Notes under the pieces: model-generated
Database searches by the model: none
What the model was told of the DNA's origin: nothing
What the model saw: only the letters and a program-made list of their open reading frames with translations
Source: an uncultured Acholeplasmataceae bacterium
GTDB taxonomy: Bacteria; Bacillota_I; Bacilli_A; ML615J-28; CAG-698
Assembly (NCBI GenBank): GCA_963542825.1
Contig: CAUTZD010000001.1
Coordinates: forward strand, 22,307 to 86,306
Direction: 5' to 3'
Length of the DNA: 64,000 bases
In this document: positions 12,811 to 13,385 of the stretch, one piece after another
Layout of the letters: each line of letters begins with the position of its first letter
How positions within the stretch are numbered: the stretch's first letter is position 1
Made by a program: the position numbers and the translations under genes

Positions 12811-12838
12811 TTGACTTTGGCTTATTATCTAGTATAAT
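12811..12838 (+). promoter_or_regulatory. Promoter TTGACT-16-TATAAT for the TIR-like gene
   Basis: -35 ttgact at 12811-12816 and -10 tataat at 12833-12838. Confidence 0.5.
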
Positions 12839-12863
12839 TAGTCAGGTTTGTTAGAAGAGGAAG

Positions 12864-13385
12864 ATGATGAAACTAGGCGTTATTTTTGATCCTATGGATA
12901 CTGTTAAATTTACGGAACTGAAAACTTTTCCAAGTTTAAATATGCATGAGTTTATTAACCTTTTGTCTTTAAAAGAAGAAGTTAATAAAACTGATGATGA
13001 AATTTTGAAAGAAAAGTTTAAGAGCGTTTTAAGCAGTTGTGATATCTTTATTTTCCTCATTGGAAAAAATAGTAAAAAACGTGTCAAATTTCTCCTTTGG
13101 CAGCAAGCAATTGCTTTAGAACTTCAAAAACCAATCGTTGTTCTTAATTTGAATTTCTTAAGATCGGTTGATTATGATCGCACGCCTCAAGCTCTAACTA
13201 AAAATTTGAGTCTTCACTGTGCGTTTCACGAGCCAATTGTCAATTACGCAGTTAATGTGTTCCCTGGGTTCTTTTATGAACAAAAAGAAATCGGAAAAAC
13301 AAAACCTAAATATCTTAAGAAAACTTATAGAGTTTTCCAAGATGTTTATGAAAAATACCAAATTTATACATCAGATTTAGGCTAG
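12864..13385 (+). CDS. TIR-like domain protein (DUF1863/MTH538-type, ThsB-like fold), solo
   Basis: SSCDIFIFLIGKNSKKRVKFLLWQQAIALELQKPIVVLNLN matches the DUF1863 core pattern (vivLiGknt..s.wv..Ei..A.e..kPiigv). RBS GAGGAAG; 173 aa. Confidence 0.55.
   Translation: MMKLGVIFDPMDTVKFTELKTFPSLNMHEFINLLSLKEEVNKTDDEILKEKFKSVLSSCDIFIFLIGKNSKKRVKFLLWQQAIALELQKPIVVLNLNFLRSVDYDRTPQALTKNLSLHCAFHEPIVNYAVNVFPGFFYEQKEIGKTKPKYLKKTYRVFQDVYEKYQIYTSDLG

Follow-up and report, generated by a model that had tools for sequence, protein, structure and literature searches.

The window analysed here is a 64,000-nucleotide (nt) stretch of contig CAUTZD010000001.1 (assembly GCA_963542825.1) from an uncultured Acholeplasmataceae bacterium. 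Between spx and the pheST T-box leader it carries a gene for a TIR-like protein, hereafter X (12864..13385, forward strand). A first-pass annotation, made from the letters alone, had read X as a ThsB/DUF1863-type protein, an NADase or signalling module, and an acquired accessory gene interrupting its neighbourhood. The family assignment was borne out, but the other two claims were not. We conclude that X is probably a divergent member of a clade in which glutamine (Gln) takes the place of the catalytic glutamate (Glu). In Mollicutes-like Bacilli this clade is probably inherited vertically in a housekeeping context rather than as part of a Thoeris system. What would be new is a ThsB-subfamily-9-like TIR clade with a natural Glu-to-Gln change, apparently fixed in housekeeping operons. 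The window copy is a divergent member of this Gln clade that has lost its ppnK neighbour and probably shares one transcript with the pheST leader.

Family, fold and active site

The open reading frame (ORF) of X encodes 173 amino acids (aa), and residues are numbered from the start at 12864. The second ATG, at 12867, is the likelier start (172 aa), because a GAGG core (12857-12860) sits 6 nt before it and because a 99% identical metagenome twin of the product, P0001, is called from that Met. This core belongs to a purine-rich ribosome-binding site read from the sequence (GAAGAGGAAG, 12854..12863, forward strand). The motif quoted in the first-pass annotation, DIFIFLIGKNSKKRVKFLLWQQAIALELQKPIVV, corresponds to residues 60-93 of the translation.

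With Pfam, the protein reached only 14 bits on PF08937 (E=0.07), short of the 21.2-bit cut-off, and did not match PF13676 (TIR_2); NCBIfam gave no match. The PADLOC ThsB1 model PDLC00429, on the other hand, covered almost the full length of X (E=7.8e-20). A word-indexed homologue search with the single protein as query returned the 99% twin only, and just 85 relatives at E<=1e-3 emerged when 1.84 billion cluster representatives were scanned in full with HMMER; the twin aside, the best was 36-38% identical. A family profile built from 52 of these relatives matched one solved structure end to end, PDB 8V6T (E=1.1e-39); a metagenome scan for further relatives used a 5-sequence alignment. It is therefore the PADLOC ThsB1 model and the family profile, not Pfam, that make the TIR-like assignment significant.

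The matched structure is EcThsB2 from the Thoeris system of E. coli CFT073, which works with a TM-macro ThsA, and EcThsB2 is the type member of ThsB subfamily 9 (PMC11204291). The AlphaFold2 model of X was confident (pLDDT 90.4, pTM 0.88), with a C-terminal helix at residues 148-164, and 154 residues superpose at 2.4 Å. As in subfamily 9, the protein is a compact TIR domain of ~170 aa with a C-terminal tail of ~20 residues packed on the domain. X is thus a ThsB/DUF1863-type TIR-like protein with the EcThsB2 fold.

The active site is where X departs from this fold family. The active-site residues of EcThsB2 are Y8 and E89 (PMC11204291). The catalytic Glu opens helix alpha-C (E81 in S. aureus ThsB2), and the aromatic residue lies on strand beta-A, being Tyr in subfamily 9 and Phe in other ThsB proteins. 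In HMMER alignments, "SFLAHEIDL" of EcThsB2 aligned with "KFLLWQQAIAL" of X, which places Gln80 in the E89 column, and "KTYVAF" aligned with "KLGVIF", which places Gly5 in the Y8 column. The first-pass annotation had asked for a conserved catalytic Glu and held that its absence would count against a TIR-like protein; the alignment has Gln at this position, although the fold is that of a TIR domain. In addition, X has Ala82 at a column where nearly all members of both clades carry Glu. In the staphylococcal catalytic ThsB2, E81Q and F6A abolish immunity (PMC12578639), and X carries the natural equivalent of both changes, which argues against the proposed NADase or signalling module.

This substitution is not peculiar to X. 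Over 112 family members, the catalytic-Glu column holds Glu in 66, Gln in ~46 and His in 1; Gln accounts for 97% of the 40 core-clade sequences and Glu for 100% of the 66 others. Neighbour joining with the Glu/Gln column removed set apart 42 members, all of Gln/His type and the X product among them, and such a pure split was kept in 85 of 100 bootstrap replicates. Similarly, the X product scored 135.9 bits on a hidden Markov model (HMM) of the Gln clade against 107.5 on that of the Glu clade. From these comparisons X belongs to the Gln clade of EcThsB2-like proteins. The clade has conserved positions of its own (D45, K68, S72, R74, F76, D105 and K112), which suggests a family constrained in its own right rather than a set of broken copies. 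X retains the clade or family residues D45, K68, K71, F76, Q80, N95, N97, R100, D103, D105 and Y162, as well as the shared family positions P90 and P108, and has one 5-residue insertion. Position 5 is Gly in X, Phe in its closest relatives and Tyr in the rest of the Gln clade.

Genomic context and inheritance

The ten loci closest to the window (context A: L096, L097, L099-L103 and L108-L110) have the X homologue directly 3' of the NAD kinase gene ppnK, either 0-15 nt away or with a 4-nt overlap; the ppnK calls were made with the Pfam NAD_kinase and NCBIfam NAD kinase models. The gene order in this context is opp / spx / CYTH (reverse strand) / [yjbM] / ppnK / X / [clpP (reverse strand) / small ORF] / T-box / pheS / pheT / ispH (reverse strand), where brackets mark genes that are not always present. 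The loci of the closest relatives (L108 and L109) run spx / CYTH / ppnK / X / T-box / pheST. The two proteins closest to X are P0002 and P0003. The locus of P0002 (37% identical to X) reads spx / CYTH (reverse strand) / ppnK / X / T-box / pheST, followed farther on by a chromate transporter and an aldose epimerase gene. That of P0003 (35%) reads spx (reverse strand) / trpS or tyrS / CYTH (reverse strand) / ppnK / X / T-box / pheST, again with an aldose epimerase gene farther on. Except for ppnK, the P0002 and P0003 orders are the window's own. One locus, L019, shows the neighbourhood without X.

In a second group of eight Gln-type loci (context B: L082, L088, L090, L092, L095, L104, L106 and L107) the order is ispDF / (Exo_endo_phos) / NAPRTase / guanylate-kinase-like gene / X / PTAC, and the X homologue often overlaps the kinase gene by 4 nt. 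The NAPRTase (nicotinate phosphoribosyltransferase) scored 699.6 bits, where the cut-off is 469. The guanylate-kinase-like protein (~180 aa) scored 130.9 bits, under the NCBIfam guanylate kinase cut-off of 160.45; it weakly resembles PhnN ribose-1,5-bisphosphokinase, an enzyme that forms phosphoribosyl pyrophosphate (PRPP). At L104 4462-5004 and L106 2138-2668, and at the equivalent places in the other six loci, the kinase-like genes are translationally coupled to the Gln-type TIR gene.

Divergence between the window and its relatives also bears on how X came to be there. Identities between the window and L099/L103 were 60% for PheS, 66% for Spx, 42-47% for CYTH, 39% for PheT, 30-34% for IspH and 28-36% for X, so that X diverges like the faster of the surrounding housekeeping genes. 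Across the context A loci, X identity follows ppnK identity: compared with L103, L096 has 51% for X and 59% for PpnK, L109 43% and 36%, and L108 29% and 24%. Against the 97.9% identical contig L001, the window X differs by 5 synonymous and 2 non-synonymous substitutions, giving a pN/pS of 0.10 compared with 0.11 for pheS and pheT. X is under purifying selection. Its GC content (0.28-0.32) compares with 0.30-0.39 in the flanks, and X is therefore no compositional island. No relative was found in phage genomes or viral contigs. The first-pass annotation had seen an acquired gene breaking into a Bacillus-like neighbourhood; given the same spx / CYTH / (ppnK) / X / pheST order in relatives at 28-37% identity, and divergence in step with its neighbours, IspH and PheT among them, X appears instead to have long resided in this neighbourhood and to have been inherited vertically, not acquired as a defence gene.

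In this lineage it is the surroundings that have changed. In the window, the CYTH-domain (YjbK-like) gene lies at 11629..12246 (forward strand), and spx, divergent from X, at 12283..12711 (reverse strand; 157.7 bits for the NCBIfam Spx subfamily, whose cut-off is 123). Compared with related loci, the spx-CYTH pair has been inverted. Downstream, beyond the T-box, are pheS (13601-14623) and pheT (14631-16958), both on the forward strand, and then ispH; farther upstream are a flavodoxin gene, DUF3793, DUF3899 and opp ABC genes. We looked in the 64-kb window for ppnK, yjbM, clpP, NAPRTase, the guanylate-kinase-like gene, PTAC, ispDF and yjbO and found none of them there, so yjbM, ppnK and clpP, which accompany X in context A, are absent from this stretch, and the spx / CYTH / pheST / ispH synteny is retained. 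A PheS scan of genome contigs gave a best match of 59% identity, so that the source lineage has no close species representative among the contigs scanned; the matches came from uncultured Tenericutes, Acholeplasmatales and Izemoplasmataceae metagenome-assembled genomes and from Bacillaceae.

The context also bears on the reading closest to the first-pass annotation, in which X would be an acquired, orphan ThsB of the Thoeris type, a TIR sensor or enzyme whose nucleotide signal acts on a ThsA encoded elsewhere in the genome. The annotation had noted that no effector gene is adjacent, and this held: the genes adjoining X (those for Spx, CYTH, PheS, PheT and IspH) include no SIR2, SLOG or macro-domain gene, and ThsA was absent among the matches listed for the 25 of 49 PADLOC families that matched the 51 window proteins. 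This search covered the 64-kb window, and the orphan reading places its ThsA elsewhere in the genome. It can also point to the top profile matches, which are ThsB models, to a nearest solved structure that is a genuine Thoeris ThsB, and to the existence of non-catalytic ThsB sensors, since staphylococcal ThsB1 tolerates mutation of its Glu (PMC12578639). However, no ThsA-like neighbour was found at ~19 distinct Gln-clade loci examined, whereas four of four intact Glu-type plasmid homologues (Vibrio, Carnobacterium, Brucella and Synechococcus; all Tyr/Glu-type) directly adjoin a macro-domain gene, often amid transposases or restriction-modification (R-M) genes. These controls are among the only plasmid matches to X, which are 25-28% identical and all Glu-type. 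Together with the replacement of both active-site residues by Gln80 and Gly5, equivalent to changes that abolish immunity in ThsB2, the conserved ppnK/pheST synteny in distant relatives, the lack of phage or viral relatives and the unremarkable composition, this makes an orphan Thoeris sensor the least supported of the alternatives and very unlikely.

Several further observations were made at these loci. On the Lactococcus plasmid pLLUC310B (L115 2390-2930), a Glu-type ThsB-like gene lies within a type I R-M locus; it is unannotated, has a stop codon at a conserved Trp (FVK*EIELA) and is thus a pseudogene. Another Glu-type protein lies in a TIR / patatin / TPR-S island. A distant family member with a Tyr-Gln active site, P0084 (L085 2173-2685), is encoded 12 nt upstream of aspS, and its gene overlaps the end of the gene for a 728-aa CHAP-domain protein. 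A functional link of the family to aminoacyl-tRNA synthetases (P0084 with aspS, X with pheS) was considered and rejected as probably coincidental, because at most Gln-clade loci clpP and the small ORF precede pheS or no synthetase gene is near. That small ORF is rich in proline and threonine (with repeats such as PPxVTNLPP), has no Pfam match, is conserved in relatives between clpP and the pheS T-box (L099 3845-4348, L096 6397-6879, L102 7357-7818 and L019 3285-3650) and is absent from the window.

Elsewhere in the window, the PADLOC models mad2, mad3, mad8, RecD-like, PDC-S68, PDC-M16A, LmuA and AbiO also matched proteins. By Pfam the window consists mostly of housekeeping genes (RecA, DnaB, RNase Y, ComEC, RF-1 and MnmA), so the PADLOC matches probably reflect generic ATPases, helicases or methyltransferases. 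An OppF-like ABC ATPase of 736 aa (7918-10128, forward strand) has a ~390-aa K/E-rich insertion that separates its Walker A motif (GESGCGKTT) from the Q-loop (MIFQDP). Because the related metagenome locus L103 (895-3033) encodes a counterpart of 712 aa, the insertion is conserved in the lineage. A 143-aa ORF at 21462-21893 (forward strand), between coaX and a transketolase gene, has no Pfam family either in the window copy or in the twin contig L001.

Transcription through X into the pheS T-box

The first-pass annotation had X starting from its own promoter and running into the pheS T-box without a terminator, and both statements agree with our results. A sigma-70-type promoter-like site, TTGACT-16-TATAAT, lies upstream of X at 12811..12838 (forward strand), fits the consensus at 11 of 12 positions and is the sole strong forward-strand promoter match between spx and pheS. 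The T-box leader (Rfam RF00230) was located at 13371..13553 (forward strand); its 82.5 bits (E=1.5e-17) fall short of the gathering threshold of 93, whereas the pheS T-boxes of the relatives scored 97-122 bits. Its Phe specifier UUC, within GAAUUCA, is invariant in four aligned leaders, those of L108 and L109 among them. Stem I begins inside the last codons of X and overlaps its TAG stop codon (13383-13385). The terminator scan found only two sites, one in the CYTH/spx interval (12253-12284) and the other the T-box's own hairpin and T run (13540..13570, forward strand); none was found between X and the T-box.

In the closest relatives, the X stop codon and the T-box are separated by a 30-45 nt spacer that carries a near-consensus promoter: TTGAAA-17-TATAAT in L108 (4970-5002) and TTGATA-17-TATAAT with an upstream TG in L109 (3710-3754). 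This promoter spacer is missing from both the window (13336-13400) and L001. A separate sigma-70 promoter for the T-box was sought in the 3' end of X; apart from a 9-of-12 site at 13149-13178, only TATACA (13365-13370) was found, with no usable -35 element. Since the promoter spacer has been lost and no terminator intervenes, X probably heads a single transcript with the T-box and pheST in this genome. Such a transcript would begin from the 12811 promoter, cross X and enter the T-box leader and pheST, with read-through gated by uncharged tRNA-Phe through T-box antitermination, and pheST expression would thus depend on the X promoter as well as on tRNA-Phe-dependent antitermination. As a local rearrangement, this leaves a pheST T-box that appears to have no promoter of its own and to hang on the transcript of an upstream gene.

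This arrangement raises the alternative that X is a decaying relic, left after the loss of ppnK and kept as an ORF only because it carries the pheST leader. With the pheS promoter spacer missing, transcription through X is probably needed for pheST. The branch of the protein is long, no relative being more than 37% identical, several residues conserved in the clade are gone and the 5-residue insertion has been gained. The ORF is nevertheless intact and has a ribosome-binding site, its pN/pS resembles that of pheS and pheT, its AlphaFold2 model is confident and it keeps the shared family positions K71, P90, N95, N97, R100, D103, D105, P108 and Y162. We therefore regard decay as improbable.

Proposed role and comparison with known systems

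As a housekeeping-context member of the Gln clade, the X protein would be incapable of Glu-dependent NAD+ cleavage or ADP-ribosyl transfer. It would act by binding, either to a nicotinamide/adenine nucleotide in the retained pocket or to a partner enzyme. We envisage X as a non-catalytic partner of NAD-pool enzymes that binds either nucleotides (NAD(P)-type) or proteins, the enzymes being NAD kinase in the window's lineage and NAPRTase together with the guanylate-kinase-like kinase in the other lineage. In this genome, the upstream ppnK would have been lost or moved, and the promoter spacer before the T-box lost as well. Judging from these gene neighbourhoods, we infer that a role as an NAD-metabolism-linked binding protein is the most likely biochemical function of X.

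Several points weigh against this interpretation. The link to NAD appears only as gene neighbourhood in two lineages, and the loci compared are partly related by descent. For the window copy itself, none of ppnK, NAPRTase and the guanylate-kinase-like gene is present within 64 kb. X also departs from the clade-conserved Y5, S72, R74, E82 and K112, having G5, K72, V74, A82 and T112 instead, and with these residues lost its function may have drifted or weakened. Its pN/pS was based on only seven substitutions. A second promoter-like site inside X (13149-13178, 9 of 12 consensus positions) could drive pheST independently. Finally, EcThsB2 itself showed no NADase activity in vitro (PMC11204291), so that activity in its subfamily is poorly understood.

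Alternatively, X could be an enzyme with altered chemistry in NAD/PRPP salvage, for example an N-glycosidase for a nicotinamide or purine nucleotide that needs no Glu, whether phosphorolytic or not, and works with NAPRTase, the PhnN/Gmk-like kinase or NAD kinase. The active site of the parent subfamily is like that of nucleoside 2'-deoxyribosyltransferases (NDTs) and DNPH1 (PMC11204291), and MilB, BcmB, DNPH1 and NDTs are among the structural neighbours of the X model. Furthermore, X homologues are translationally coupled to ppnK and to the guanylate-kinase-like gene beside NAPRTase, which is weakly ribose-1,5-bisphosphokinase-like, and the clade's own conserved positions D45, K68, S72, R74, D105 and K112 would suit such an activity. 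However, the window sub-lineage has lost the remaining candidate catalytic residues (Y5 is F or G, and E82 is A or K), the association is one of neighbourhood only and, to our knowledge, no member of this fold works without the Glu. An altered chemistry is thus possible for the clade and weakened for the window sub-lineage; for X we consider it unlikely.

More tentatively still than the housekeeping assignment itself, the Gln clade as a whole might be a domesticated Thoeris-type TIR that has lost NAD+ cleavage, kept the nucleotide pocket and come to serve central metabolism in reduced-genome Bacilli. Two forms of this reading fit the evidence: an NAD(P)-sensing regulatory partner of NAD kinase and NAPRTase, or a Glu-independent N-glycosidase feeding the synthesis of PRPP or nicotinate mononucleotide (NaMN). 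If true, it would give bacterial ThsB-like TIRs their first housekeeping role, and would tie immune TIR chemistry to a metabolic origin or a metabolic offshoot. If the NAD-pool association is functional, it would offer a direct entry to the relation of TIR domains to NAD metabolism outside immunity. There is also a practical consequence for annotation. Bacterial TIR/ThsB proteins are now read almost automatically as anti-phage NADases, and the clade of X illustrates the risk: defence annotators will label such genes ThsB (PADLOC did so here at E=8e-20) and inflate the counts of "orphan Thoeris". Our literature search found no paper joining ThsB/TIR proteins with NAD kinase or describing a Gln clade, although absence from the searched literature is not proof.

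Among characterised proteins, the closest comparison is with EcThsB2 (8V6T) and subfamily 9. X has the same length (~170 aa), shares the motif N-x-N-G-x-R-x-x-D...P with EcThsB2, and its Tyr162 aligns with EcThsB2 Y164. It differs in having Gly for Tyr8, Gln for Glu89 and no adjacent macro-domain ThsA. Furthermore, X is chromosomal and syntenic with pheST and, in its relatives, with ppnK, whereas ThsB genes lie on plasmids or in defence islands. The same subfamily of type II (TM-macro) Thoeris includes the B. amyloliquefaciens ThsB that yields His-ADPR (PMC11204291).

The other enzymes of this fold differ from X in their active sites. NDTs, DNPH1 and the CMP N-glycosidases MilB and BcmB depend on a Glu nucleophile and a Tyr, and X has neither.

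For a TIR protein acting by binding rather than catalysis, as we propose for X, staphylococcal ThsB1 may serve as the precedent: it senses the phage capsid and its own catalytic residue is dispensable (PMC12578639). It does, however, keep its Glu, and its Thoeris operon also encodes a catalytic ThsB2 and a ThsA, whereas X has no such partners nearby.

The animal adaptor TIRs MyD88, TIRAP and TRIF act by filament assembly in immune signalling. X has no sequence relationship to them beyond the fold, and nothing suggests filament assembly for X. Nevertheless, the binding role proposed for X would resemble that of these adaptor TIRs and of the non-catalytic staphylococcal ThsB1.

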